Below are positions 6,985 through 40,819 of a stretch of DNA of 64,000 nt, in pieces (the stretch's first letter is position 1; every line of letters begins with the position of its first letter). The notes beneath the pieces were generated by a model that saw only the letters and a program-made list of their open reading frames with translations, did not search any database and was not told where the DNA came from. A program made the position numbers and the translations under genes. The stretch comes from a candidate division WWE3 bacterium UBA1401 (GTDB lineage Bacteria; Patescibacteriota; WWE3; UBA101185; UBA10185): contig DBQF01000001.1 of assembly GCA_002305115.1 (NCBI GenBank), positions 224,916 to 288,915 of the forward strand, in the 5' to 3' direction.

Positions 6985-7719
6985 ATGACAACAGACTTAC
7001 TCGATAAAGCCTTTAAACTTCTAAGAAGGAATTATGGTTGCCCCGGTCTAGATGGCGTTTCTTTAAGAGAGATAAAAAAAGATTATAACAAGCATAAAAA
7101 TGTGGTTTTGGGCAAATATACTGAGAATCAAGTAAACTCCTTGTCAATAAAGACAACTACTATAATTGATTATGGAGGTAAAGAAAGGGAAATATTTGTT
7201 TATTGCATCCATGAAAGATGGTTGCAAATGTACCTGAAATTACAAATTGAACATGACATTGAGAAGAACTTGAAAAGTTATGTTTTCGGTTATAGAAAAG
7301 GTGTGACAATGAAGGACTTGCATAGCTACTTACTTAATACCGGTCTCGAGCATATCCTTCATTTAGATATAGCCAAATATTTTGATCAAATTGATAGAGA
7401 ATCACTCTTTAATTTTCTAGAACACAATATTGGTGTAAGTAGAGACATCCTTGTTAAGATTCAAAAGAGTGTTTCTCATACAAATAAAGGATTGCCGCAA
7501 GGCAATGTTTTGTCCCCTATTCTATCAAATGTCTACCTTATACCCTTTGATAAGTGCTTTCCAGAAAATTATGCAAGATTTAGTGATGATCTCTATTTTG
7601 CACTAGGAACTCCCAGGAAAAAGGATGAAATGGTTAAGAAAATTAGCGAGCATCTACTTAAACATAAGCTTAAGATAAATTATAGTAAACTGGAAATTAA
7701 GAATGTTAACAAATTCTAA
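6985..7719 (+). CDS. reverse transcriptase (RNA-directed DNA polymerase), unusually short, no thumb region
   Basis: RT motifs: 'GCPGLDGVS', 'LDIAKYFDQID', 'GLPQGNVLSPILSNVYL', 'RFSDDLYF' (FSDD catalytic box) and 'KLKINYSKLEI'. The ORF ends about 8 aa after the last motif. Confidence 0.85.
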   Translation: MTTDLLDKAFKLLRRNYGCPGLDGVSLREIKKDYNKHKNVVLGKYTENQVNSLSIKTTTIIDYGGKEREIFVYCIHERWLQMYLKLQIEHDIEKNLKSYVFGYRKGVTMKDLHSYLLNTGLEHILHLDIAKYFDQIDRESLFNFLEHNIGVSRDILVKIQKSVSHTNKGLPQGNVLSPILSNVYLIPFDKCFPENYARFSDDLYFALGTPRKKDEMVKKISEHLLKHKLKINYSKLEIKNVNKF

Positions 7720-8569
7720 AGAAAAAAGAATACTGATAATGGATGGAAGTCACTACCTATATAGGGCATATTATGGAGTTCCAGATAGTGCAAAATTGCC
7801 AAGTGGTCTGCAAGTGAATGCTGTATATGGTTTTTTTGCATACCTAAGAAAAGTGGTGGATTCTGTAAACCCTTCTAACATTGTTGTTGTTTTTGACTCG
7901 GAAACCGGTATCTCTGAAAAGGTGGCTCAAAATACCTCCTATAAAGCAAACCGGAACTATTCAGATACGGGAATGTATGAGCAGTTGCCCATAATAAAGA
8001 AAATCTTAACCTTTTTATGCATTCCATATATTGAACCTGACAATCTTGAGGCCGATGATTATATAGGGGCATTAGCTGTGAGAAGCAAAGCTAGAAGTTA
8101 TACATTGATATTTTCGAATGACGCAGATTTTCTCCAACTGTTGGATGATTCCCTTAACGTAGTAAAGATGGGAAGAAAACAACCAGAGATCATGGATAAT
8201 GATAGTTTTTATGAGGTCTTCGGTTTTGAAAGTAAATACTATGTTGATTATTTAACGTTGAAAGGGGACCCAACGGATAATGTCAGGGGGGTACCGGGTA
8301 TCGGCAAAAAAACTGCCCAAAAGTTTATTTCCACCTATAACTCTATTGATAATATATACGCAAATCTTTCTGATCACCCGGAGAGAATGCGGCATTTACT
8401 ACTTGAGTATGAGTATGTTGTGAAAAGTACGTACGAACTACTGAAAATAGACACCTCTGTTGGGACCGAGGATATTGAAGAAATACTCAAAATCCCGTTT
8501 CAAAAGCATGATGAGTTGAAGAATAAAACTAACCACTTACTAACTTGCGTTGGAACTAACACTAGATGA
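7703..8569 (+). CDS. 5'-3' exonuclease / flap endonuclease (Pol I N-terminal domain family)
   Basis: 'MDGSHYLYRAYY', 'VVVFDSE', 'EADDYIGAL', 'SNDADFLQL' and H3TH 'GDPTDNVRGVPGIGKKTAQKF'. Start lies 17 nt inside the RT ORF. Confidence 0.85.
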   Translation: MLTNSKEKRILIMDGSHYLYRAYYGVPDSAKLPSGLQVNAVYGFFAYLRKVVDSVNPSNIVVVFDSETGISEKVAQNTSYKANRNYSDTGMYEQLPIIKKILTFLCIPYIEPDNLEADDYIGALAVRSKARSYTLIFSNDADFLQLLDDSLNVVKMGRKQPEIMDNDSFYEVFGFESKYYVDYLTLKGDPTDNVRGVPGIGKKTAQKFISTYNSIDNIYANLSDHPERMRHLLLEYEYVVKSTYELLKIDTSVGTEDIEEILKIPFQKHDELKNKTNHLLTCVGTNTR

Positions 8570-11016: not shown

Positions 11017-11685
11017 TCAAATTATCGAGTACTCCCGTTTCTCAAACACCAAATGAAAAATTGGCCGCTTTTGGCCAAATGCCAGTTTCTTACTCCAGGT
11101 AGTTTCAAGTTCCCTTAAAGCAGATTTATTCAGAATACTAAATTTTACTAACTCCAACCCGAGTTGCGTATAGGCTGGAACTAGTTTTTTCTCAATATAT
11201 TCGCCACTTATTTTAGCTAAGCCCAACCTCTCAAACTCCGAAGGTTCAAATTCTGGAGAATAGCCGAAAATGATATTTAATTTACCTTCTGGTTTCAGTA
11301 ACCCTATTATATCAATTAGTTTGGTGGTATCGGGTGCAGCTACATATTGTAGTAACGTTCCCCAAGGCAAAATAATAAACACCTCATCTGCGCTAGTAGT
11401 TAGTTCTTGCGGAATATTTTCAGCCGCAGCAGGTGCAAACAGTACATTAGGCAATTTCTTCCTGGCAGCCTTTCTGGCATAAATTTGCAGTTGCTTAGGT
11501 GCAGGGTCAATGCCGATAAATAAAGTATCCGGGTGTGTTAACGCGTTCTTATAAACAAACTTGCCGTCCCCAGTTCCAAGATCAATTACAAGTCTGGAGT
11601 ATTGTTTAATGAGCTCTGTTACATCAACTTCCTCTAGCTTATTTCCCTTAACTACCTTCATTACTATACATAATACACTACCCAT
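11017..11685 (-). CDS. 16S rRNA (adenine1408-N1)-methyltransferase-like protein (NpmA/KamB family)
   Basis: 'VIDLGTGDG', 'LFIGIDP', 'ILPWGTLLQYV' and 'WSKKLAFGQKRPIF' line up with my memory of NpmA ('HIDLGTGDG', 'FYIGIDP', 'ILFPWGTLLEYV', 'WAKRLAFGRKRSFF'). Size matches. Start may be the ATG at 11661. Confidence 0.65.
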   Translation of the reverse strand: MGSVLCIVMKVVKGNKLEEVDVTELIKQYSRLVIDLGTGDGKFVYKNALTHPDTLFIGIDPAPKQLQIYARKAARKKLPNVLFAPAAAENIPQELTTSADEVFIILPWGTLLQYVAAPDTTKLIDIIGLLKPEGKLNIIFGYSPEFEPSEFERLGLAKISGEYIEKKLVPAYTQLGLELVKFSILNKSALRELETTWSKKLAFGQKRPIFHLVFEKREYSII

Positions 11686-13480: not shown

Positions 13481-13630
13481 TGACTTCTATTTTATCATGC
13501 GCTATTTAAATAAATGTTTATTTCTGTTAGAATTCATGTGTTATGACAGTGAAAAAACACAAAAAGCACGCACAACCAAATAAAGACAAGAAAAGAATCC
13601 GCAAAAAAGCAAAAAGGGTTTGCTAGATAA

Positions 13631-13696
13631 CTTCTAACTGCTTACAGCTAACTACTAACTTTAAAAAAGTCAGAAGTTAGTAGTCAGTAGTTAGTC
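13631..13696. repeat. stop-codon-rich TTAG/TCAG repeat element in inverted-arm form
   Basis: CTTCTAACTGCTTACAGCTAACTACTAAC (13631-13659) faces GTCAGAAGTTAGTAGTCAGTAGTTAGTC (13669-13696). Same motif family as 16396-16473, 24025-24056, 24455-24494 and 40786-40819. Confidence 0.7.
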
Positions 13697-15001
13697 ATAA
13701 ACATACACCGGTATTCCAATTTTTGCCCATTCAAACAACTCCTTAGCCTCTTCGTATCTAAGCTGAATACAACCTCCAGTAGCTGGGCTGCCCATAGTGT
13801 TTTCATCCCTTGAATAAATATTTCCGGCAGCATCCATGTGATATGGAATAGCATGAAAGCCGAATTGGTAAGTATTAAAAATCTTTCCAATAGGCAAATA
13901 ATAAGGCATATACCAATTTCCAAAATACGAAATGGTCATTTTTTGCTTACCTAATACTTTATATGCGCCAGCCGGTGTGTCCCAAGTTAGCCCTGTTGAT
14001 ACAATATAAGTTTTTACTAACTTTCCGTGTTCAAACCTGTATAGCCGCTGCTGCGGCTTAACAACTTCAAGGTATGCGTCATGCAATTCTCCGTTGGTTC
14101 TGGGTAAACCCTCAATAGGCAAAATTACTGCCTGGTTAACCTGTTCATCTGCCGCCCGGTACAAAATTGCCCTTCTTACAGCGGTAACGGCATCTGTTAA
14201 TAGAAGTTTTACATCATCAGATTCATATTTCGGCATTAGTTCTTTAAGATAAGTTTCAATTCTAGAAGCCGAAATGAATCCATGCATCAGCCCGTTTATT
14301 TCCTGAGTATAAATAAAAGCTGCCATTTGTTCTTTGGGAACATATATGGGTGTACCTCCATATTTGATAAGTAGTGGCGTAGTTATTTTGTCTATCAAGG
14401 CTTGTGTCTCAGTGTGCTGCAAGTCAAAGTCATCTTCAGTTTCTACTGCTAAATCTATTTTTATACGCTCTTCATTAATGACTTTTGCAATAGCCGCCCG
14501 GTCAGCAAAAGGGGATCTGTCTATTTTAATTACTGCATCCGGGCTTAATGTCCTAAACGAGTAGTCATCAAAATTAATAATGTTGTTATTTTTTATATAG
14601 GCCAGCTCAGTTTCCAAACTGTCTAGATACGCATCTAGCTTGGCAAAATTTACGGCCAACAGCTCATCTGCAATGACTGGCTCATTAGATGTGTTTTTAC
14701 AAAAAAGCGGGGGAGTTATAACTCTGCACACTCGAGTGTATCTAAATAACCTATCTCTATTTAAGCTAATGCCAATTTCCGGAAAAGTCACTGCTCTGCT
14801 GGTGTTTTGGGTATTTAGATAAACAGGTTTAGTGAAGATGCCATTTATAAGGGCTGTGCCTTCAGGCCAGCTTTTACCACTTAGATCTATTGTTCCAAGT
14901 CTTACGTTGGGTTTAAAAATGGTGGTGGGTTTTTGGTCAAAATAACTAACAGCTAAAAAAGTTACTAAGGAGACAAAAAGTAACGCCAGTTTTACTTTCA
15001 T
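13691..15001 (-). CDS. L,D-transpeptidase (YkuD domain) with a large N-terminal domain
   Basis: C-terminal 'STGLTWDTPAGAYKV...HAIPYH...SPATGGCIQL' catalytic motif. N-terminal signal/TM segment. Confidence 0.8.
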   Translation of the reverse strand: MKVKLALLFVSLVTFLAVSYFDQKPTTIFKPNVRLGTIDLSGKSWPEGTALINGIFTKPVYLNTQNTSRAVTFPEIGISLNRDRLFRYTRVCRVITPPLFCKNTSNEPVIADELLAVNFAKLDAYLDSLETELAYIKNNNIINFDDYSFRTLSPDAVIKIDRSPFADRAAIAKVINEERIKIDLAVETEDDFDLQHTETQALIDKITTPLLIKYGGTPIYVPKEQMAAFIYTQEINGLMHGFISASRIETYLKELMPKYESDDVKLLLTDAVTAVRRAILYRAADEQVNQAVILPIEGLPRTNGELHDAYLEVVKPQQRLYRFEHGKLVKTYIVSTGLTWDTPAGAYKVLGKQKMTISYFGNWYMPYYLPIGKIFNTYQFGFHAIPYHMDAAGNIYSRDENTMGSPATGGCIQLRYEEAKELFEWAKIGIPVYVYD

Positions 15002-15758: not shown

Positions 15759-16397
15759 ATGATTAAACTTAACTTTATAAACAACCTGAAAAACTCCCTG
15801 TCTAAAGAATCCCTTGGTAACAATAAAAAGCTAATATCTCGAGTGCTTCTGTTGGTCTTTTCTGTGCTTGTTTTAGGTGGCGCCGCTTACTTGGTGAAGG
15901 AAAAAAAGGATCTTTTTGTTGTAGCTACAATAGATAACAGACCCATATTTAGATATCAACTTACTGGCAAGTTAGTTCAAAACTTTGGTGCAAGTGTACT
16001 GGAAGATCTTATTTCCCAGAATTTAGCAGAGGCTGAATTAGATAAGCAGAAAGTGGCCGTTACCGAAGATGAGCTTGCCGCAAAGCTTGATGAGATAAAA
16101 CAGAGCGTTGGTGGCGACTTGGAAGCGGCCCTTGCAAGCAGTAATATGACTATGAAAGATTTGGAATCGCAAGTGGTGTTGCAGCTACGAATGGAAAAGT
16201 ATTTTGCAGACGATGTGAAAGTAACTGATGAAGAAGTGGCGCAGCTATTGGAAGATTATGCGGATCAGATTGATGGTACTGAAGATGAGAAGAAGAAGCA
16301 AGCTGTGGATTATTTGAGGAATCAGAAGTTGCAAGGGAAGATTTATGAGTGGTTGGAAGGCCTAAAGCAGCAAGCAGATATTAGGAAGTTTATTTAA
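15759..16397 (+). CDS. SurA N-terminal-domain-like chaperone (PrsA/SurA family, no PPIase domain seen)
   Basis: TM anchor followed by an acidic helical region similar to SurA_N-type proteins. Confidence 0.5.
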   Translation: MIKLNFINNLKNSLSKESLGNNKKLISRVLLLVFSVLVLGGAAYLVKEKKDLFVVATIDNRPIFRYQLTGKLVQNFGASVLEDLISQNLAEAELDKQKVAVTEDELAAKLDEIKQSVGGDLEAALASSNMTMKDLESQVVLQLRMEKYFADDVKVTDEEVAQLLEDYADQIDGTEDEKKKQAVDYLRNQKLQGKIYEWLEGLKQQADIRKFI

Positions 16398-16473
16398 CTA
16401 CTGACTACTGACATGCTCTTTATAAGAATTCCCTGTTAGTTGTTAGAAGTCAGTAGTTAGTCGTTAATCGTTA
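16396..16473. repeat. stop-codon-rich TTAG/TCAG repeat element in inverted-arm form
   Basis: AACTACTGACTACTGAC (16396-16412) faces GTTAGTTGTTAGAAGTCAGTAGTTAGTCGTTAATCGTTA (16435-16473). Confidence 0.7.
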
Positions 16474-20975: not shown

Positions 20976-21050
20976 CCTCACCCCCTTAATCCCCCTCTCC
21001 ATCAACTGCTGATGGAGAGGGGGACAGGGGGAGGGGGTTAGGAGGTGAGG
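20976..21050 (-). terminator. very GC-rich hairpin terminator after the 21038-22141 gene
   Basis: Perfect 14-bp stem CCCCCTCTCCATCA (20991-21004) / TGATGGAGAGGGGG (21010-21023). Outer CCTCACC/GGTGAGG pairing. On the minus strand it is followed by TTTTGCCAATTTTT. Confidence 0.6.
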
Positions 21051-22141
21051 TGTCTTAGGAGGGCGACAACATCCGGATCGCCTTGCACATCGCCGTCTTT
21101 CAACTCCAAGACCTCTCCGCCCTTTCTAAGCAAATTAACCACAATAAAATTCACCAAACTCTTATTATTCCCGTCCTTCCTTTCTTTCCTCACAAACACA
21201 TGCTCTACATGCCCGTAACTTGCTTCTTTAGCAATCTTTTCCAAATCATCTACAATAACCCTACTACTTCCCATTGCGTCATTAAGTTCTTCTACCCTTT
21301 TCTGCCGTTTGTTTTCAACAAACCCTTGTGCTACTTCCCAAGCCTGTTTTGCCAGCTGTGCATTGCTCGCCGTATGTGCGTCTATTTTTACAGACTCATC
21401 TGCTACATTTACATGCGAACTAATATCTTTATAAATGGGGTAATATTCGTCCAAACACGCCAGTATTAAAGGTGTTTCTTCATCTGTTATCACTTCTGTT
21501 ACTTTTTCATTTACTTCTATAAAGAACTCTCTGATATCTTCTTCTTTTGCGTCTTTAAACTCACCCTGGCCGTGAAACCGCAGTGGCGATTTTTTTGACC
21601 CAGTGGTATGAAACTGTAGCTGTTCCGGTACATTTATGAAATCAAAAAGTTCATTAATATTATTGGGAATAACGTGCTTGCCCACTTGTCTGCATGCCTT
21701 GTTAACGCATTGCAGAAGCCTTACATTTTTGAGATCAAGTGCCAGAACATAATAATCTATGTGGTCAAACATGTAGTTAACAAGTTGTGTTAGGTCAAAG
21801 TATTTGCCTATGTAACTTCTTTCTTCAACTGGTGTAGGTAATTGTATTATTTCTAAACTTTGGGGTGATACATAAAGCATTAAACCTTCCAGTTGTTGCT
21901 GCCAAAAGCTTTCATCTGTTTCTAGCCCCTCAAGTTTGGATAGCAAATCATGCTGTAAAGCTGTACTGGCTTCAAGTTCGGTTTTTACTTCTTTTATTTG
22001 ATTAGTGAGCCTGATTTTTGTCTGTTCCGTATTATCCCATTGTCTTTCTGATGGTAAACTCACACTAACTTTTATGACACTAGTATCTTGAGCTAGTTCT
22101 TTAAGTTCTGCGAGTAGATTTTTTTTGGTTAATAATTCCAA
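21038..22141 (-). CDS. hypothetical protein, possibly baeRF (bacterial archaeo-eukaryotic release-factor-like) family
   Basis: The N-terminal pattern 'VSVSLPSER...TKIRLTNQIKEV' resembles what I remember of baeRF families. Unverified. Confidence 0.35.
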   Translation of the reverse strand: MELLTKKNLLAELKELAQDTSVIKVSVSLPSERQWDNTEQTKIRLTNQIKEVKTELEASTALQHDLLSKLEGLETDESFWQQQLEGLMLYVSPQSLEIIQLPTPVEERSYIGKYFDLTQLVNYMFDHIDYYVLALDLKNVRLLQCVNKACRQVGKHVIPNNINELFDFINVPEQLQFHTTGSKKSPLRFHGQGEFKDAKEEDIREFFIEVNEKVTEVITDEETPLILACLDEYYPIYKDISSHVNVADESVKIDAHTASNAQLAKQAWEVAQGFVENKRQKRVEELNDAMGSSRVIVDDLEKIAKEASYGHVEHVFVRKERKDGNNKSLVNFIVVNLLRKGGEVLELKDGDVQGDPDVVALLRHLTS

Positions 22142-23672: not shown

Positions 23673-23921
23673 TTACCTAATAAGTCTTACAACTAAAATA
23701 ATTACTATAGCTCCTAAGATAGCTACCAGGATGCTGTAGATGTTAAACCCGGTGATGCCTTCAAACCCCAATAAGTTCATTATGATACCGCCTACAAATG
23801 CCCCAATTATGCCCAAGATGATGTTTGCGAGAATGCCTTGCTGGTCATCATTTGTGCCCATAATTAAAGATGCCAGCCAGCCCACTAGGGCACCAAACAA
23901 GATCCACAAGATTATGCCCAT
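23673..23921 (-). CDS. GlsB/YeaQ/YmgE family stress-response membrane protein
   Basis: 'ILWILFGALVGWLASLIMG...GIIGAFVGGIIMN' family signature. Confidence 0.8.
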   Translation of the reverse strand: MGIILWILFGALVGWLASLIMGTNDDQQGILANIILGIIGAFVGGIIMNLLGFEGITGFNIYSILVAILGAIVIILVVRLIR

Positions 23922-24024
23922 GTAAAATTCACCTCTTTCTAGCTCTGCTAGCCAACTTTGTTGATAGAGTATAGGGAGGATGGTTAAAAGTGCCTTGAGA
24001 AAGATGTAAAAAGGTTATAAGAAT

Positions 24025-24056
24025 AACGACTGACTGCTAACTGCTAACTTCTGACT
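24025..24056. repeat. left inverted arm flanking the four-helix-bundle gene (TTAG/TCAG family)
   Basis: The reverse complement AGTCAGAAGTTAGCAGTTAGCAGTCAGTCGTT matches 24455-24486 at about 28/32. Two of the mismatches are G-U in + strand RNA. Confidence 0.75.
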
Positions 24057-24073
24057 GGAAGGTACAGTGAATA

Positions 24074-24460
24074 TTGCTAGATCTGGTAGACAATGGTACA
24101 ATCCATGTTGTGGTATTTCGATACAGAAATTTCAGTGTTTATAAGGATGCTCAGGAATTTCATAAAGAAATCCTGCAATTTACCAGAAAATTTCCTTACT
24201 ACCTTCAAGATCAAATTTGTAGAGCTTCCCTAAGCATTATTCTTAACATTGCTGAAGGTTCAGGTAAATCCACAGATAAAGATTTGGGTAATTTTTTACA
24301 AATATCACTGGGTTCTGTATCTGAAGTTATGGCATGTTTAGAAGTCGCAGCATTAAATAATCTTATAGACCAACCTACCTTTAATAAACTCTCACAAGAC
24401 TGTGAAAAACTCTCCAAACAGCTTGGAGGTTTCAGAAAACACCTGAAAACCACAAGTTAG
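24074..24460 (+). CDS. four-helix-bundle protein (23S rRNA intervening-sequence protein / Avd-like family)
   Basis: 'YRNFSVYKDAQEFHKEI...LQDQICRASLSIILNIAEGSGKST' is characteristic of this family. Confidence 0.8.
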   Translation: MLDLVDNGTIHVVVFRYRNFSVYKDAQEFHKEILQFTRKFPYYLQDQICRASLSIILNIAEGSGKSTDKDLGNFLQISLGSVSEVMACLEVAALNNLIDQPTFNKLSQDCEKLSKQLGGFRKHLKTTS

Positions 24461-24494
24461 AAGTTAGTAGTTAGCTGTCAGTCGTCAGCCGTTA
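24455..24494. repeat. right inverted arm flanking the four-helix-bundle gene
   Basis: AGTTAGAAGTTAGTAGTTAGCTGTCAGTCGTCAGCCGTTA. Overlaps the ORF stop. Confidence 0.75.
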
Positions 24495-24498
24495 ATTC

Positions 24499-25179
24499 CT
24501 AGTCTTCGATTTTGTAGCCAAATCCAATCACTGTTTGAATAAGCGGGAATTCGAATGGGTAATCTACTTTTTCTCGTAAATAGCCGATATAAACGTCAAC
24601 AATTCTGTCGTTCACATAGGAAGTTTTCCAGACGTGATTTAGGATCATCTCTCTTGATAGCACCTTATTTTTGTTAACCACCAGATAATGCAGCAGTTTA
24701 AATTCAGTTGGAGTTAAGACAATGGCCATATTCTGGCGCTTAACTTCCAAAGTTTCTGTATTCATAGTCAGATCTTTGGCGCCAATTACAGTCGCACTTT
24801 TACCCTCCACTGTGTTTTCTTTAGGGGTCATTGCCACTTGGACTCTGGCTAAGAATTCTTCGGTAGATATTGGCTTTATCATGAAATCCACTTTGGGATT
24901 TTTTAAAACATCAGAAATCAATTGCACATCAGATTCATTGCCGATAAAAACTATGGGGATTTTGGGGAATTCTTTGTGAAATTGCTTAACGAAAGATTGT
25001 GCAGTTATAGTTTTGCAGCCATAACAAGTTATTACCAAATCCATGTCTATGTTATACATATCTTTTAAGAGTGCCACTTCGTCTTTGGCTGTTATTACTT
25101 TATATCCCGCCTCTATTAGGATTCTCTTTAGGAATTGCAGGTAGGCCTCATCATTTTGTATTAATGCAATTACCTTCAT
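24499..25179 (-). CDS. OmpR-family winged-helix regulator with an atypical (Asp-less) receiver domain
   Basis: C-terminal 'LTPTEFKLLHYL...VDVYIGYLREKV'. The receiver has 'DLVITCYG' where 'DLVLLD' is expected, so Cys sits at the phospho-Asp position. Confidence 0.75.
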   Translation of the reverse strand: MKVIALIQNDEAYLQFLKRILIEAGYKVITAKDEVALLKDMYNIDMDLVITCYGCKTITAQSFVKQFHKEFPKIPIVFIGNESDVQLISDVLKNPKVDFMIKPISTEEFLARVQVAMTPKENTVEGKSATVIGAKDLTMNTETLEVKRQNMAIVLTPTEFKLLHYLVVNKNKVLSREMILNHVWKTSYVNDRIVDVYIGYLREKVDYPFEFPLIQTVIGFGYKIED

Positions 25180-25309: not shown

Positions 25310-27976
25310 ATGCAAAATGCTATCTGTGATATTTGCCATGTCAGACCTGCTACCACTGCAGTTTCGGTGTTCGATCACGGCGTTAGAAAAACAATAAACG
25401 TATGTGATTTTGATTATCAAAGACTTCAGACAACACAGGCAAGGCGCACTATGCTGGAGTCTTTGTTTGACATGGATCCGTTTCAACACTTTACTTATAC
25501 ACAAGAATCAGACCTTTTTACACCAGAAGACGATATTCAGCAAGCCGAAGCGTTAGCAAGAGACTACCTTGAGATTTCCAAGTTCTTTTCAGAGCAAACC
25601 ACAGACATTTTCAAAGAGGCGGGCAATGTTGCAGAAGGTTTTAACCGTAACGAAGTAGATACTGAGCATGTGCTTTATGCCGCTCTAGGCAATCCATTGG
25701 TAGTCAAACTTTTAGCTAAGCTTGGCACAAACGCTGATGATATTAAGGCATATATAGACACCAATGTGGCGCAAGGCACCTTGTCTGATGAAGCTTCGCT
25801 AGCTGCAGATTTAACTATTTCACCAAGAGTAAAAGATGTTTTAGAGAGAGCCTTTCAGGCTTCACGCGACCTTGGTTCCAGTTATATAGGCCCTGAGCAC
25901 ATACTAATAGGCCTAGCAGAAGAAGACGATGGCTTAGGCGGTATTACTCTGCGTAAGTTTGGAGTAGATCCAACTGCCCTTAGAGATGCCATTAACCTAC
26001 TCCAGAAAACTCCGGCTAAAGCTCCAAGAGTAATTTTAAATGTACCAACATTGGCAAAGTACACAAGAGATCTAACGGAGTTAGCTGAACAGGGCAAGCT
26101 CGACCCGGTAATTGGCAGAACAGATGAGATAAGTACGTTGATTGAAGTTTTGTCCAGAAGGACTAAAAATAATCCGGTCTTGATAGGTGAAGCAGGTGTA
26201 GGCAAGACAGCTATAGTTGAAGGTTTGGCTCAACGTATTGTGAACGGGGATGTTCCGGAGCACTTGTTAACTAAACGGGTATATGAAGTGAGTGTGAATT
26301 CTCTAGTTGCAGGAACAAAGTATCGGGGAGAATTTGAAGAGCGACTGGAAACTCTTATCAACGAGGTTATAGCAAACAAAGAGCATTTGATTTTGTTTGT
26401 TGATGAACTCCATATGATTGTAGGTGCCGGCGCCGGTGGTGAAGGTGAGACCGGTGATGTTTCCAACATTATTAAACCCTATCTAGCCCGAGGTGATATC
26501 AACCTAATTGGTGCAACTACACTAGGTGAATATACCAAGTACATTGAAAAAGACGCAGCACTAGAAAGGCGGTTTCAGCCAATTCTGGTTGCTGAGCCTA
26601 CAGTTGAGGAAACAATAGAAATTCTGCGAGGTTTAAGGGATAAATACGAAGCATTTCATAAAGTACGCATAACCGATAGAGCCATTGTGTCTGCGGCTGA
26701 ACTTTCAGATAGATATATAAAAAACCGGCTACTTCCGGATAAAGCCATAGATTTAGTAGATCAAGCATCCGCGCGCTCGCGTATTAGTTCGGGAGTATTT
26801 TCTGCCGAAATAAAAAGGCTTAACAGTGATATAGAACGGTTAGGTATGGAAGAGGATTTTGCAGCCACTTACGGCAATTATGACGAAGCGGAAAAGATCA
26901 GGGACAAGCTTGATAAATTGAGAGAAAGAAGGGATGAAATAAATGCCCAATGGGAAACTGAACGAGGTACTACTTCTGTAGATGTTACAGAAGAAGATAT
27001 AGCTACAGTGGTTTCTAAACTTACCGGTATTCCTGTTACTCAACTTACCCAAGAGGAACGGGCTAAACTGATGCAGCTTGAAACTGCTATTCAGCAAAAG
27101 ATAATTGGTCAGGAAAAAGCAGTTACTGCCGTAGCACGAGCAATTCGAAGGTCACGGGCAGGGTTGTTAGCAAGTACTCGGCCTATTGCAGTTTTTATGT
27201 TTCTTGGCCCAACAGGTGTAGGTAAAACCGAACTAGCCAAGGCTTTAGCCAGAGTGATGTTTGGTGATGACAAAGCTTTAATTAGAATAGATATGTCTGA
27301 ATATAAAGAGAGTCATACTATTTCCAAATTAATTGGGTCGCCACCGGGATATATTGGTTATGAAGAGAGTGGCTATTTAACAGAGAAAGTGCGAAGAAGT
27401 CCGTATAGTGTTATTTTGCTAGATGAGCTGGAAAAGGCGCATCCTGACGTGCATAATTTGCTGCTTCAGATTTTTGACGAAGGCAGGCTTACAGATAGCA
27501 AAGGTAGAACAGTAGATTTCACTAACACTATAATTATTGCCACCAGCAACTTGGGTTCTGAGTATATTCAGAAGTATGGCAAAGTAACCGAAGAGTTGCA
27601 GAAGCAAGTTAACGATTTTTTAGCTAATGTATTTAGACCTGAATTTTTGAACAGAATTGATGAAGTGATTATTTTCCATTCGTTAAGCAAGGAACAAATT
27701 AGACAAATTGTGGATTTGAGGCTTAGTGAAGTATGTGAAGTTTTGGAAGGCCAGGGATTAACAGTAGATTTTACAGACGAGTTAAAAGATTATCTGGCTG
27801 AGCAAGGTTATGACCCTAGGTTTGGAGCAAGGGAATTAAATAGGATTATTCAAGCGCAGGTGATGGATGTATTGGCGGAAACATTGTTAAGCGGCAAGGT
27901 TGACCCTCAGAAGGTGCAGAAGTTGCAAATAGATTATTCCGATGAGCAGGGTAAGGTAGTGGTGGAGGGTTTGTGA
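25310..27976 (+). CDS. clpC: ATP-dependent Clp chaperone ClpC-type (two AAA+ modules)
   Basis: Clp_N repeats. Walker A 'GEAGVGKT' and 'GPTGVGKT'. UVR-like '[11 protein letters not shown]' middle region. Extra Cys-rich N-terminal ~45 aa. Confidence 0.85.
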
Positions 27977-32869: not shown

Positions 32870-35722
32870 GTGGTAATGCCCAAAGACTTAACTGCCCTGT
32901 TCTGCCCTAAAACTCTTGCCATTGTTGGCGCTTCACGCTCTCCTGAAAAGGTTGGTGCCGTTGTCCTGAAAGGCATTCAAGAGGCGGGTTATGCAGGTAC
33001 AATATATCCTGTAAATCCTAAGGCCGTTGAGGTTGGTGGTCTTAAATGTTATCCAAGCGTGACCGATCTTCCTGAAACTCCCGATCTAGCTATTGTAGCT
33101 ATTCCGGCACCTTTAGTTTTGGAAGCATTAGCAGAAATTGGAGAAAAAGGTGTACCAAACGTAATTGTTATGTCTGCTGGTTTTAAGGAAACCGGTGACG
33201 AAGGTGCAAAGCTGGAAAAGCAGTTAGTTGAATTGGCAGACAAATATCAAATCAACATGCTTGGTCCCAATTGTATGGGTTATGTAAATACTTTGTGTTC
33301 ACTCAATGCTACTTTTGCTCATACTCCTACAGAAGTTGGTAACTTGCGGCTGGTTTCTCAGTCGGGGGCAGTAGCTGCAAGTATCTTTGATTGGTGTGAC
33401 TCTATTAATTTGGGTTTCAGTACTTTTATAACTTTGGGTAATAAGGCACAGATTACTGAAACTGATATTTTGGAATTTTACAAAAACCAGACCTTTGAGC
33501 TTGATAACAAAGGATTGTCACACGTGAGACCCATAGGTCTCTACTTAGAGTCGGTTGCTCACGGTACAGAATTTTTAAAGTTAGTAGAAGCTGTTTCCAA
33601 AACCGATCCAGTGCTAGTCATTAAGCCCGGCAAAACTTCTGCAGGCGAACACGCTATGGCATCACATACCGGTTCTATGGCTGGTGAGGATGTTGTTTTC
33701 GAAACTGCTCTTAGGCAGGCAGGTGGTATAAGGTGCAATACACTAGAGGATTTCTTTGATTTAACTAAAGCTTTTGCCTGGGAAGATGCCCCCAAGGGGC
33801 CTAAAGTTGCGGTGGTTACTAATTCTGGCGGGCCTGGTGTTATCAGTGCCGACGCGGTAGTAAGCTCTGGTTTAGAATTAACCCCTATTACAAATGAACT
33901 TAAGTCAAAATTACTAGAAGTCTTACCTCCGGCTTCTGGTTTAGCCAATCCCGTTGATGTGTTGGGTGATGCTTTGGCCGATAGATATTATCAGGCGGCA
34001 GAGATTTTATTTGAAAATGCGGAAGTTGATGTCATGCTGTTTTTGTTAACCCCTCTTTTAATGACAGAAATAGAGCAAACAGCTGAAGCTATAAATAAAC
34101 TTTCCAAAAAGTATCATAAGCCTATTTTCTGTTCATTTATTGGTGGTACAGAGGTGGTGGCAGGTAATAAAATTTTAGATACCTACAAGATTCCTGCATA
34201 TAACTTCCCTGAAAGGGCTATTTTTGCCATTTCTAAAATGTATGAATGGCAGAGAAACAAACAGCAACATGATGACATTGTTTCACTTGTCGATATGGCT
34301 GCAGATATTGATTTTGAGATTTCCAAACAGATTGTTTTTGGAGCTATCAGAAATCAGCAGGTAGCTTTAGATAATTTCCAAGTAAACGATATATTAACTT
34401 CTGTGGGAATTACAGTGCCTGCTACTAGGCCAGTAAGAACATTGGAAGAAGCACAGATTTTCTCAGCAGAAAATGGCTGGCCAGTGGTTTTGAAACTTTC
34501 TGCCTCCGGTTTGTTACATAAAAAAGACATTGGAGGTGTTATTACATCCATTGACTCATTTCAAGCCTTGGAAGAGTCGTGGGCAAGAATTAACGAGGCT
34601 CTTAACAAACTAGCTCCACAAATGCAAGAGCTGTCAGCTATCCAAATTCAGCAGCAAGTGCCTGACGGTGTTGAAGTAATTGTTGGAGTTAAAAAAGATG
34701 CTACTTTTGGTAATGTTTTGTTATTTGGTGCCGGCGGAACTTTAGCTGAGCTTATTCAAGATAGGAATTTGTATGTTTTACCTATGGAAGATAATGCAGT
34801 TGATAATTTTGTAGCCAGTTCGAAAATTTATAAAGTCCTCAAGGGTTATCGCGGCCACGAAGCTTATGCGCTAGATAAACTTTATGATTTGCTTATCAGG
34901 TTTGCTAAAACTGCTGAGGCACACACCCAAATAGCAGAAATGGAAATTAACCCGGTAATAGTTACACCAGATGCTGTTTGGGCGGTAGATGGTAAGGTAG
35001 TATTAACACAGCAAGCCTCCTCAGTACCTGCCGGGCCTAAGTTTTTAACGGCAAAAACCCTTGAGCATAAAGTGCTGGCTACAACTTATCACTATTTCGA
35101 ATTTGAGCCTGATGTACCGTTAAAATATCAGCCTGGCCAATATTTAAGCGTAAAAGTCTCCAGTGACCGTATTAACTGCTACTCTATTGCCGGCCAGAAA
35201 GGTAATAAATTTAACTTATTAGTAGATGTGCTCCCGGGCGGCCCCGGATCTAAATTTTTTGAAAGCCTTAAGGTAGGTGAAGATGTTAGTTATTTAGGAC
35301 CATTTGGCAATTTTGTGCTGCACGAAGATGATAATGCTAAGCATATTCTCCTGTTAGCTACTGGTTGTGGTTTTGCCCCACTAAAGAGCATTTTGGAGAC
35401 ACTTTTGGTTGATCGCAAGACTACTATTCCCATCAGCTTGTACTTTGGTTTTAGGAAACCCCAGGATGTCTTCTGGGAAGATTATTTTGCTAAATTAGCC
35501 TCAACATATCCGAACTTTAAGTATCACCTAACAGTGGATAAGGCAGAAGGTGATTGGTGTGGCAATATTGGCTATATAACCGAGCTTATTAATAAAGATT
35601 TTGAAGATCTGAAAGGTTTTTCTGCGTATCTTTGCGGTAGTAAACCTATGATTAATGCGGCAGTTGAACTGCTTACAAGTAAAGGCTGTTCGGAGGATAA
35701 TATTTATTATGAAAAGTTATAA
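32870..35722 (+). CDS. ADP-forming acetyl-CoA synthetase (fused alpha/beta) with a C-terminal FNR-like FAD/NAD(P)-binding module
   Basis: CoA-binding 'IAIVGASRSPEKVG'. Succinyl-CoA-ligase-like 'SQSGA' and 'HTGSMAG'. ATP-grasp region. The last ~230 aa carry 'CYSIAG', 'GPFGNF', 'LLATGCGFAPLKS' and 'YLCGSKPM'. Confidence 0.8.
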   Translation: MVMPKDLTALFCPKTLAIVGASRSPEKVGAVVLKGIQEAGYAGTIYPVNPKAVEVGGLKCYPSVTDLPETPDLAIVAIPAPLVLEALAEIGEKGVPNVIVMSAGFKETGDEGAKLEKQLVELADKYQINMLGPNCMGYVNTLCSLNATFAHTPTEVGNLRLVSQSGAVAASIFDWCDSINLGFSTFITLGNKAQITETDILEFYKNQTFELDNKGLSHVRPIGLYLESVAHGTEFLKLVEAVSKTDPVLVIKPGKTSAGEHAMASHTGSMAGEDVVFETALRQAGGIRCNTLEDFFDLTKAFAWEDAPKGPKVAVVTNSGGPGVISADAVVSSGLELTPITNELKSKLLEVLPPASGLANPVDVLGDALADRYYQAAEILFENAEVDVMLFLLTPLLMTEIEQTAEAINKLSKKYHKPIFCSFIGGTEVVAGNKILDTYKIPAYNFPERAIFAISKMYEWQRNKQQHDDIVSLVDMAADIDFEISKQIVFGAIRNQQVALDNFQVNDILTSVGITVPATRPVRTLEEAQIFSAENGWPVVLKLSASGLLHKKDIGGVITSIDSFQALEESWARINEALNKLAPQMQELSAIQIQQQVPDGVEVIVGVKKDATFGNVLLFGAGGTLAELIQDRNLYVLPMEDNAVDNFVASSKIYKVLKGYRGHEAYALDKLYDLLIRFAKTAEAHTQIAEMEINPVIVTPDAVWAVDGKVVLTQQASSVPAGPKFLTAKTLEHKVLATTYHYFEFEPDVPLKYQPGQYLSVKVSSDRINCYSIAGQKGNKFNLLVDVLPGGPGSKFFESLKVGEDVSYLGPFGNFVLHEDDNAKHILLLATGCGFAPLKSILETLLVDRKTTIPISLYFGFRKPQDVFWEDYFAKLASTYPNFKYHLTVDKAEGDWCGNIGYITELINKDFEDLKGFSAYLCGSKPMINAAVELLTSKGCSEDNIYYEKL

Positions 35723-39805: not shown

Positions 39806-40756
39806 ATGTCAGCTTCTGCCCGAAAAGGCGTTTATTTCGCCATAATCCCTGCTTTAATATCCGGAATTTCTATATTTGTTAACAAATTTGCTGTTGGTGC
39901 TATTACACCGCCTCTGCTTTTTACTACTGCAAAAAATGTAGGAGTTGCTTTGGTTTTGTTAGTGTTGCTGTTGGCCAGAAGTAACTGGTACAAAATAAGA
40001 GCTTTAAGCAAAAGTGATTTTCTAAAGCTGTGCCTGATAGGTCTGGTTGGTGGCTCGGTGCCCTTTTATTTGTTTTTTACTGGGCTGGCCCAAATTCCTG
40101 CCATCAGTTCAGCAATTATTCATAAAACATTGGTGATTTGGGTTGCTCTTTTGGCAGTACCTTTGCTTAAAGAAAAAGTTAATGTGATTCAGGGAATTGG
40201 TGTGTTGTTACTTTTTGCCAGTAACTTTGTAGTTGGTGGGTTTAAGGGGTTTGAGTTTTCGGTTGGGGAGGTTCTTACGCTTGCCGCAACGCTGTTATGG
40301 GCAGGGGAGACTATATTGGTTAAAAAATTGTTACCAAAAATCGATTCAGATCTAGTCGCGTTATTCCGAATGGGTGTTGGTGCTTTGGTCTTAATGATGG
40401 TCTCGGCACTGACTGTGCCCTCGGCTGCAGTACAGCTGACCGTTACGCAAACAATGTGGCTTGGAGTTACTATGGTTTGTTTAGCCGGGTATGTTTTGAG
40501 TTGGTATAAGGCCTTAAAGTACGCGCCCGCTGTTGTGGTGACTTCGGTTTTGGTGCTTTCCACGTTGGTCACGAATGTTTTGTCTGCTGTCTTTATCACG
40601 CATAGTTGGAGTTTTTCCGGCACGTTGCATGGTGGATTAATAGTGTTAGGGTTAGTAGGTGTGTGCTCGGCAAGTGGGTTTCCGGTGCTCGCGGAGCTAC
40701 GCACGCTGCGCTCCGTAGAACCCCCATTGCCTCGCAATCCTGTAAGCAGTCAGTAG
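39806..40756 (+). CDS. DMT-superfamily (EamA) transporter
   Basis: Ten predicted TM helices in a duplicated EamA-like architecture. Confidence 0.75.
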   Translation: MSASARKGVYFAIIPALISGISIFVNKFAVGAITPPLLFTTAKNVGVALVLLVLLLARSNWYKIRALSKSDFLKLCLIGLVGGSVPFYLFFTGLAQIPAISSAIIHKTLVIWVALLAVPLLKEKVNVIQGIGVLLLFASNFVVGGFKGFEFSVGEVLTLAATLLWAGETILVKKLLPKIDSDLVALFRMGVGALVLMMVSALTVPSAAVQLTVTQTMWLGVTMVCLAGYVLSWYKALKYAPAVVVTSVLVLSTLVTNVLSAVFITHSWSFSGTLHGGLIVLGLVGVCSASGFPVLAELRTLRSVEPPLPRNPVSSQ

Positions 40757-40785
40757 CCTGCCCCCCGTAGCCTTGGCGAAGGCGG

Positions 40786-40819
40786 GTTAGTTGTCAGAAG
40801 TTAGAAGTTAGTAGTCAAC
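40786..40819. repeat. stop-codon-rich TTAG/TCAG repeat element (single arm)
   Basis: GTTAGTTGTCAGAAGTTAGAAGTTAGTAGTCAAC lies between convergent genes. Confidence 0.65.

Follow-up and report, generated by a model that had tools for sequence, protein, structure and literature searches.

A PF05635 four-helix-bundle gene between inverted heptamer arrays in an intergenic spacer of a candidate division WWE3 bacterium

We analysed a stretch of 64,000 nucleotides (nt) from the candidate division WWE3 bacterium UBA1401 (contig DBQF01000001.1, positions 224,916 to 288,915), in the following called the window, with a focus on a small gene of the PF05635 family that is enclosed by two inverted repeats and forms a cassette together with them. 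The two neighbours of the gene, to both of which it is antisense, are a Transgly_assoc gene and a response-regulator gene, and the genes around it are of stress-type and regulatory character. A first-pass annotation made from the letters alone had seen no context of ribosomal RNA (rRNA) or of a diversity-generating retroelement (DGR), and this agreed with our searches: Rfam revealed no rRNA in the window, no reverse transcriptase (RT) was present within about 5 kb of the cassette, and a repeat search of positions 23800-24700 detected no pair resembling template and variable repeats (TR/VR). Neither a transposase nor a recombinase was found near the cassette, and the window contained no second gene of the PF05635 family and no near-identical copy.

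Profile searches assigned the open reading frame (ORF) to PF05635, its sole Pfam match, with 93.2 bits (cut-off 33.8), and to TIGR02436 with 91 bits (cut-off 24). The 128 aa given by the first-pass annotation correspond to the alternative start codon TTG 24074; GTG 24110 is the likely start, since it agrees with the N-terminus of the family (MxxFRF...) and with a public protein of 116 aa (P0001), which was 99% identical over 116 aa. Thus, the proposed family and fold were retained, while the length is probably 116 aa. The ORF is intact and keeps every residue that is invariant in its subfamily. An AlphaFold2 (AF2) monomer model displayed four long helices with a predicted local distance difference test (pLDDT) value of 95.7, and Foldseek searches with this model revealed Xcc0516 (2GSC, template modelling (TM) score 0.91), BT_0352 (2RLD, TM 0.81), and the DGR protein Avd (4DWL, TM 0.77 at 6% identity); 2GSC was also found by phmmer (E = 5e-7). 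The Avd-like fold suspected at first sight was therefore recovered. Apart from the fold, the protein differs from Avd in its sequence (6% identity) and in having neither an adjacent RT nor template/variable repeats, and an identity as DGR Avd was rejected on account of the missing RT and TR/VR pair. With an isoelectric point (pI) of 8.8 the protein is only mildly basic, and a PADLOC search resulted in no defence-system match for it.

Based on a repeat search, the gene is framed by an inverted repeat of 31 nt (24026-24056 and 24455-24485, spacing 398 nt) with 90% complementarity, and two further registers shifted by 7 nt still revealed 79% and 76%. The pairing of 28 matches, two G-U pairs, and one other mismatch is close to the 28 of 32 positions with two G-U pairs that had been counted before. 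An ungapped scan of the 150-nt flanks gave the arms a score of 23.5, compared with 7.8 on average and 11 at most after shuffling of the downstream flank. What had been described as plain inverted repeats are indeed inverted, and in addition they are built of tandem heptamers: Tandem Repeats Finder (TRF) reported a period of 7, and parsing of the units led to the consensus TRACNNN with five units on the left and six inverted units on the right. Read as its reverse complement, the right arm consists of TAACGGC TGACGAC TGACAGC TAACTAC TAACTTC TAACTTG. The first unit of the right arm includes the TAG stop codon of the gene (24458-24460), in accordance with the overlap noted earlier, and the arm ends 4 nt short of the stop codon of the response-regulator gene (24499-24501, - strand). 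At the left side, 51 nt separate the arm from GTG 24110, so that the arms bracket the ORF precisely, as had been claimed, only at the right end. Every combination of arm and strand in the window but one contained stop codons in all three frames. Chance or low complexity as a source of the arrays was ruled out by the arm-score shuffles, by the count of the heptamer motif, which occurred 12 times in the window with 0.38 expected, and by the number of period-7 arrays, of which the window had four and shuffled sequences none.

Folding of the predicted transcript 24015-24505 on the + strand resulted in a minimum free energy (MFE) of -139.6 kcal/mol (z -7.2) with the arms paired in both the MFE and the centroid structure; the long-range stem assumed in the first-pass annotation is thus predicted (Table 1). 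On the - strand the same region gave a z of -3.8, with the arms paired as well.

To see the arms as a property of the gene family, relatives were collected in a scan by protein of 185,579 species-representative genomes, which revealed 80 loci with proteins of 40-56% identity, nearly all of them in metagenome-assembled genomes (MAGs) of Patescibacteria. These loci were chosen by protein alone, disregarding the flanks, and 77 of them had enough flanking sequence. A period of 7 nt was the best repeat period in 73 of the 77 upstream and 66 of the 77 downstream flanks, compared with 15 of 142 control regions located 770-900 nt from the gene. Strict arrays on both sides were detected for 45/77 family genes, compared with 12/308 other ORFs of the same loci (odds ratio 35, Fisher p = 8e-27). 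Other copies of the gene had been named in the first-pass annotation as the place to look for the same arms, and there they were, at the gene ends: the left arm ended at a median of 16 nt upstream of the start codon, and the right arm started around the stop codon. Arms had a median length of 31 nt with 4.1 and 4.7 units and were about 80% complementary, while single arrays ranged from 3 to more than 15 units. The sequences at the arm ends were not conserved, and variation was by whole units.

Regarding the units themselves, TAACNNN was the commonest, and CAGCNNN, GAACNNN, AAACNNN, TGACCTA, AGCGGAT, and the 8-mer GATTAGCN were also identified. The two arms of one cassette matched each other at 5.71 of 7 unit positions, compared with 4.48 of 7 between different cassettes. 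Eleven loci harbored a second copy of the gene, 30-35% identical, and most of these were also flanked by inverted arrays, made of other units. Such paralogues used different units within one locus (L033, TAACNNN and AGCGGAT) or within one MAG (L003 and L046). For arms of the Patescibacteria type, stop codons in all three frames on the strand entering the cassette were present in 46/70 and 38/70 arms, compared with 10-13% in composition-matched shuffles, so that translation entering from a neighbouring gene would end at the arm. Not all units have this feature; AAAGGGA, for example, is free of stops.

The arrangement was also found outside the Patescibacteria. A tblastn search of plasmids resulted in 15 copies of about 30% identity, 14 of them from cyanobacteria and one from Azospirillum. 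Six of the ten copies that were inspected displayed clear inverted heptamer arms with units wholly unlike TRAC (Table 1). Two cyanobacterial copies were placed antisense. In three Nostoc copies (L082 and L083 on plasmids gamma and alpha of PCC 7120, and L091 of HK-01), the right CTCTGCC array alone was intact, and an insertion sequence (IS) element or IS-end-like sequence was located where the left array would be expected. The copy L085 on plasmid pPg_01 of Pseudanabaena galeata (about 1050-1660) lies between cas6 and cas4; its left array comprises about 15 perfect AAGCTAA units and its right array about 10 of AAGCCAA. Altogether, gene and arms occurred together in about 100 related copies from several bacterial phyla; the PF05635 gene is thus associated with inverted period-7 arrays in different phyla, although the unit itself changes in sequence. 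In the reverse direction, the PF05635-family gene was by far the commonest content when metagenomes were searched for inverted triplets of TRAC heptamers spaced 350-380 nt apart, with 62 of 121 such array pairs enclosing a gene of this family.

Some further observations were made on the plasmid copies. In L086-L090, from cyanobacterial and Azospirillum plasmids, the upstream units are purine-rich and Shine-Dalgarno-like (GGGAG, GAGGA, or AGGGA every 7 nt), and the downstream arm is the anti-Shine-Dalgarno-like complement, a character missing from the TRAC units of the Patescibacteria type. One four-helix-bundle protein of the Nostoc copies, WP_010994075.1, is encoded on two plasmids. The end of an ISL3-family transposase gene is located directly upstream of the four-helix-bundle gene in L082 and L091, while L083 has the same IS-end-like sequence upstream and its nearest annotated transposase about 550 nt off on the opposite strand. 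The arrays of L085 are open to misreading as a mini-CRISPR (clustered regularly interspaced short palindromic repeats) locus.

The genomic positions of the relatives were determined from ORF ends, annotated tRNA genes and, for rRNA, BLAST searches against E. coli rRNA together with the flank sequences. Twelve cassettes were located inside 16S rRNA, at a helix tip near E. coli positions 70-100, with arms of like kind, and one locus had a second cassette deeper in the 16S gene. The classical 23S rRNA helix-45 site was occupied in L074 and, as judged by its flanks, in the Azospirillum plasmid copy L090. About 17 cassettes lay between or beside tRNA genes. An annotated tRNA-Thr upstream and an annotated tRNA-Tyr downstream were found for L003, L011, L016, L027, L028, L034, L043, L045, L055, and L057, and with one of the two tRNAs called, L006, L022, and L070 probably occupy this tRNA-Thr/Tyr site too. 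Reading of ORF ends placed L012 and L078, from two Patescibacteria lineages, in the groES-groEL spacer and other cassettes between further co-directional genes, namely a pilB-like and a pilC-like gene, or a penicillin-binding-protein-like gene and the gene downstream of it. The distance from arm to neighbour was about 0-15 nt. In 52/77 loci both neighbours were co-directional with the cassette gene, while only two loci, the window included, had the gene antisense to both. The window copy is thus inverted compared with the usual orientation, with the polarity of its arms relative to the ORF as usual.

The PF05635 family was first discovered within intervening sequences (IVSs) of rRNA genes. In Coxiella burnetii, the IVS lies in 23S helix 45, encodes S23p, and has a terminal stem of 28 bp, which RNase III cuts in vitro; its ends mapped by rapid amplification of cDNA ends (RACE) lie mid-stem, and its 5' arm consists of 2-3 tandem GACAGAT heptamers, the number of which is strain-variable (PMC4990558). 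Insertions in rRNA of the candidate phyla radiation (CPR) are reported to encode 23S_rRNA_IVP ORFs (bioRxiv 10.1101/2024.02.27.582315). The window cassette resembles such rRNA IVSs, i.e., those in 23S helix 45 of Leptospira and Coxiella and in 16S/23S of the CPR, in its PF05635 gene, a length of about 430-470 nt, a stem of about 28-31 bp, and heptamer arms. It differs in that it is placed in a spacer of protein genes and antisense, that its unit is TRACNNN, and that excision by RNase III has been shown only for rRNA copies. Of the features that define an IVS, it has the long terminal stem and an S23p-family ORF together with a heptamer arm, and it lacks the insertion at an rRNA helix tip (23S H9/H25/H45 or 16S). 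The module is known from rRNA, and the window element represents it outside rRNA and in an antisense position. Since relatives with like arms reside in 16S and 23S rRNA, the part of the first-pass label "IVS-like or MITE-like" (MITE, miniature inverted-repeat transposable element) that described an IVS-like cassette outside rRNA was accurate. The MITE label was rejected: the element has no target-site duplication and no near-identical copies in the window, and its ORF is intact.

On balance, we regard it as probable, if only slightly so, that the window element is an IVS-type cassette in an intergenic spacer, a conserved module of a PF05635 gene and inverted heptamer arrays whose stem closes off the gene and is a substrate of RNase III. 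When the region is transcribed, the two arrays of about 4-6 heptamers each would pair into a stem of about 30 bp around the gene, and this stem would serve as RNase III substrate in the same way as that of the Coxiella IVS. Cleavage would free the cassette RNA from the flanking RNA, which would either stay joined at the stem base or end there. RNase III may act on the window stem in this manner, as the analogy with copies in rRNA suggests. While the gene of co-oriented relatives is presumably expressed through read-through, the window gene, being antisense to its neighbours, would need a promoter of its own, for which there is a candidate between arm and start codon (Table 1), and it may be expressed from there. 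A stem cut by RNase III would explain why cassettes are tolerated in rRNA helices, tRNA operons, and tight spacers such as groES-groEL, and also why they are co-oriented with their neighbours.

Several results weigh against this reading. Mismatches in the arms of the 77 loci comprised 111 G-U and 91 A-C combinations; with no clear G-U excess, they do not speak for selection at the level of RNA over that of DNA, and the two G-U mismatches of the window that were noted in the first-pass annotation lose their value as evidence for an RNA stem. The four conserved positions of the unit were 91% complementary and the three variable ones 63%, and the order of units added to the pairing in only 23/70 loci in a permutation analysis. 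With the core paired and the variable positions often not, the "stem" of many relatives would consist of helices of 4-5 bp and small internal loops, a poor substrate for RNase III. In the tRNA-Thr/Tyr subgroup the variable positions were often visibly unpaired, and the arms could not be aligned because the number of units differs. The arrays of L085 are direct and not inverted, an exception to the hairpin arrangement. No RNase III gene was found in the window. The window copy lies antisense to its neighbours, and promoter-like matches in the region were no commoner than in shuffles, as was likewise the case for the counts of a terminator scan. Finally, the other 59 of the 121 metagenomic array pairs enclosed other small genes or no ORF, so the arrays are not exclusive to the four-helix-bundle gene.

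The gap in pairing between core and variable positions, the weak effect of unit order, the missing G-U excess, and the direct arrays are no less compatible with arrays that are mainly binding sites of the encoded protein. In this case, a pentamer would contact one heptamer per subunit, on RNA or DNA, for autoregulation, packaging, or maintenance of the repeats; pairing would be secondary, and arrays without an ORF would be further sites. We hold this to be possible though doubtful. What is conserved are the period and a core of 4 nt and not perfect pairing, and the medians of 4.1 and 4.7 units per arm stand beside five chains in each of the deposited entries 2GSC, 2RLD, and 4DWL. The title of the paper on Xcc0516 speaks of "five four-helix bundles", and Avd is part of an RNA-protein complex in 8UB7 and related entries. 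Furthermore, the unit is specific to the cassette and not to the genome, since paralogues differ in it. All four array sites of the window are built of the cassette's unit (TRACNNN), and ORF-less arrays matched the unit of their own cassette slightly better than those of other cassettes (4.88/7 compared with 4.45/7, p = 0.0015). On the other hand, the protein is only mildly basic, the arrays range in length from 3 to more than 15 units, and unrelated housekeeping genes are flanked by arrays as well; any co-variation between protein and unit is inseparable from shared descent in these data. The stem and the binding sites are compatible, and one does not exclude the other.

We consider it improbable that the arms act as DNA, i.e., as recombination or hairpin-targeting signals of a mobile cassette (as a MITE, as terminal inverted repeats of a transposon, or by insertion into the loops of heptamer hairpins) or as substrates for inversion. 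The arms are inverted terminal repeats, ORF-less hairpins resemble "empty" versions of the cassette, and the absence of an asymmetry between G-U and A-C would suit such a role. The family occupies many unrelated sites, including cas operons, where its genes have been noted before (PMC3936711) and where we found L085, and IVSs are described as sporadic in distribution and horizontally transferred (PMC4990558), which would fit some mobility of the cassette. The GC content of 36.3% in the cassette, compared with about 40% in its flanks, weakly suggests that it came from elsewhere, and the window copy is inverted with the polarity of the arms kept. However, no target-site duplication was present at 24023/24495, where the flanks ...GGTTATAAGAA on the left and ATTCCTAGTC... 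on the right share no direct repeat, and the window lacks a nearby recombinase or transposase as well as a second near-identical copy. Arm ends that vary by whole units also argue against this role, and relatives in different lineages share one site: the occupation of the tRNA-Thr/Tyr, pilB/pilC-like, and groES/groEL sites in different lineages looks like long residence and not like hopping. Free inversion is made unlikely by the orientation bias of 52/77. An architecture of this kind, a single gene between inverted short repeats that are also dispersed as ORF-less hairpins, is known from repetitive extragenic palindromes and their associated tyrosine transposases (REP/RAYT, REPIN). The likeness is one of architecture only, as RAYT is a Y1 transposase with known cleavage chemistry, while the window protein is a small helical bundle that is not known to be catalytic, and its arms are tandem arrays and not single palindromes.

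As had been remarked in the first-pass annotation, the arm repeat also occurs without an ORF. Apart from the cassette, the window contains three array sites (Table 1), which have the unit in common with it and are otherwise different in sequence. The hairpin at 13627-13695 begins at the stop codon of a - strand gene (13691-15001) and that at 16397-16473 at the stop codon of a + strand gene (15759-16397), so that arrays in the window touch stop codons at 13691, 16397, 24458, and 24499. At 40740-40818, an arm-to-arm hairpin is absent, and the fold, with a z of about 0, equals that of shuffles. Correia/NEMIS MITEs (NEMIS, Neisseria miniature insertion sequences) are inverted-repeat stems in mRNAs that are cut by RNase III. 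As intergenic, co-transcribed inverted repeats they compare well with the hairpins at 13627 and 16397; unlike the window arrays, Correia elements have defined terminal repeats, a TA duplication, and many near-identical copies.

Hairpins of this kind could also be ordinary host elements, such as terminators, RNA-stabilising stems, or translation signals, between two of which the gene came to lie by accident. Cyanobacterial short tandemly repeated repetitive (STRR) sequences are heptamer repeats akin to the TAACTGA type. Arrays of TAACTGA heptamers are abundant beside start codons in Beggiatoaceae, Cyanobacteria, and Bacteroidetes (MacGregor 2015, PMC4679880). Like the window arrays, they are tandem 7-nt intergenic units beside start or stop codons and bear stops, by which an array closes all three frames, and TAACTGC and TAACTGA agree at 6/7 positions; unlike them, they are direct arrays, for which translational regulation has been proposed (PMC4679880). 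This paper uses none of the terms four-helix bundle, S23, or IVS for a gene, and it has one case of an inverted array only. A general link between gene and heptamer arms was not found in the literature beyond the Coxiella case and the TAACTGA paper, where coverage was incomplete and this is absence of evidence only. Such repeats beside start codons in other phyla, the 53 arrays that were detected outside cassettes in 425 kb of related loci, and the 59 inverted pairs without a family gene, some with thioredoxin-, AtpE-, S17-, or HypC-like ORFs, would be expected if the gene were a bystander. However, the association with family genes compared with other ORFs is too strong for coincidence, half of the pairs with the right spacing hold a PF05635 gene, and the association spans phyla with unrelated units; we therefore give this explanation very little credence.

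Two side observations concern the metagenomic pairs. In L095, L154, L170, L172, and others, the arrays bracket ORFs that, judged from their translations, are S17-, thioredoxin-, HypC-, and AtpE (ATP synthase c)-like, which suggests that arrays fill many intergenic spacers in some genomes. L131, L134, L147, L177, L207, and L209 share a recurrent element that begins with TAACAAC TAACAAC TAACAATAAGGTCG..ACACATG and surrounds low-complexity, ORF-poor sequence with no four-helix-bundle gene.

Table 1. Cassette, related features in the window, and heptamer units of plasmid-borne copies
Feature	Position	Strand	Sequence or character	Basis or remark
Left arm	24024-24058	+	TAACGAC TGACTGC TAACTGC TAACTTC TGACTGG	Repeat search, TRF (period 7), unit parsing
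Right arm	24453-24494	+	CAAGTTA GAAGTTA GTAGTTA GCTGTCA GTCGTCA GCCGTTA (six inverted units)	Repeat search, TRF, unit parsing
Whole cassette	24024-24494	+	Predicted stem of about 31 bp closing a gene-bearing loop of 394 nt	RNA fold prediction
Four-helix-bundle gene (PF05635/TIGR02436)	24110-24460	+	GTG start (likely), 116 aa	Profiles, P0001, family alignment, AF2, Foldseek
Promoter-like site	24074-24102	+	TTGCTA-N17-TACAAT with TG extension, 9/12 match	8 nt before GTG 24110; lead only
ORF-less hairpin, cassette unit	13627-13695		5 units, 6-nt loop, 4 inverted units	z about -3, both strands
ORF-less hairpin, cassette unit	16397-16473		Loop of about 22 nt	z -4.5
Heptamer arrays, cassette unit	40740-40818		Both arrays in one orientation, around a short GC-rich hairpin	Convergent genes on either side
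Plasmid copy, Nostoc edaphicum			TAGGGAG/CTCCCTA	
Plasmid copy, Calothrix			AGGGTGT/ACACCCT	
Plasmid copy, Geminocystis			AAAGGGA/TCCCTTT	
Plasmid copy, Azospirillum			CAGAGGA-CGGATGA	
Plasmid copy, Stanieria			GGCAGAA-type	
Plasmid copy, Calothrix PCC 7716			GCTGTTA/GCTAAAA-type	

Several other genes of the window were recorded. On the - strand, a terminator-like hairpin with a T-run (24412-24428) lies antisense within the four-helix-bundle ORF and downstream of the response-regulator gene, a single match that equals chance expectation. Directly upstream of the cassette, a baeRF-like release factor gene (21038-22141, - strand; family 7/3, E = 1e-32) is located among small stress-type genes (YflT/DUF1269, Transgly_assoc). 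Among 5.8 billion proteins, the adjacent ClpC-like ATPase (25310-27976, + strand) had no relative of more than 57% identity. The nearest named hits were Parcubacteria, Saccharibacteria, and Paceibacteria, and the source seems to belong to a deep lineage from which no close relatives have been sequenced. The only RVT_1 ORF of the window (6985-7719, + strand), 17 kb from the cassette, encodes 244 aa (RVT_1, E = 3e-21; PADLOC generic "RT", E = 6e-39) and shares 17 nt with the start of a gene for a 5'-3' exonuclease (PF02739 and PF01367), the two spanning 6985-8569 (+ strand); no Avd-like gene adjoins this pair of a small RT and a FEN-like nuclease. Furthermore, we identified a gene for an NpmA-like 16S rRNA (adenine1408-N1) methyltransferase (11017-11685, - strand; PF24675, E = 2e-55); enzymes of this type are known determinants of aminoglycoside resistance. 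An ORF of 950 aa (32870-35722, + strand) combines an alpha-type ADP-forming acetate-CoA ligase (TIGR02717, E = 2e-149) with a C-terminal ferredoxin-reductase-like domain (BenC/MmoC-type, E ~1e-31), which looks like an unusual fusion.

ORF-bearing IVSs have long been seen as a curiosity of rRNA genes, and the heptamer repeats of cyanobacteria, Beggiatoaceae, and Bacteroidetes have been unexplained. According to our analysis, the gene of the IVS protein is almost always accompanied by inverted heptamer arrays, be it in rRNA, in tRNA spacers, within operons (groES-groEL, cas), or, as in the window, in a simple intergenic spacer. For annotation, this leads to a simple rule, in that a pair of inverted period-7 arrays with a spacing of about 360-400 nt points to a PF05635-family gene in about half of the cases. 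Two questions can now be tested, namely whether the protein binds the repeats and whether RNase III processes the stems in mRNAs and tRNA precursors. Tentatively, and with more doubt than confidence, PF05635 proteins of all bacteria may even be specific partners of tandem heptamers; a pentamer would recognise about five of these, the arm-enclosed gene would be the "autonomous" copy, and ORF-less arrays such as TAACTGA and STRR would be its sites or derivatives. If this is true, both a protein family, an orphan since the 1990s, and a class of repeats that have been used in fingerprinting but never explained would gain a function, and the ORF-bearing IVSs of rRNA would be the subset of heptamer cassettes that landed in rRNA.

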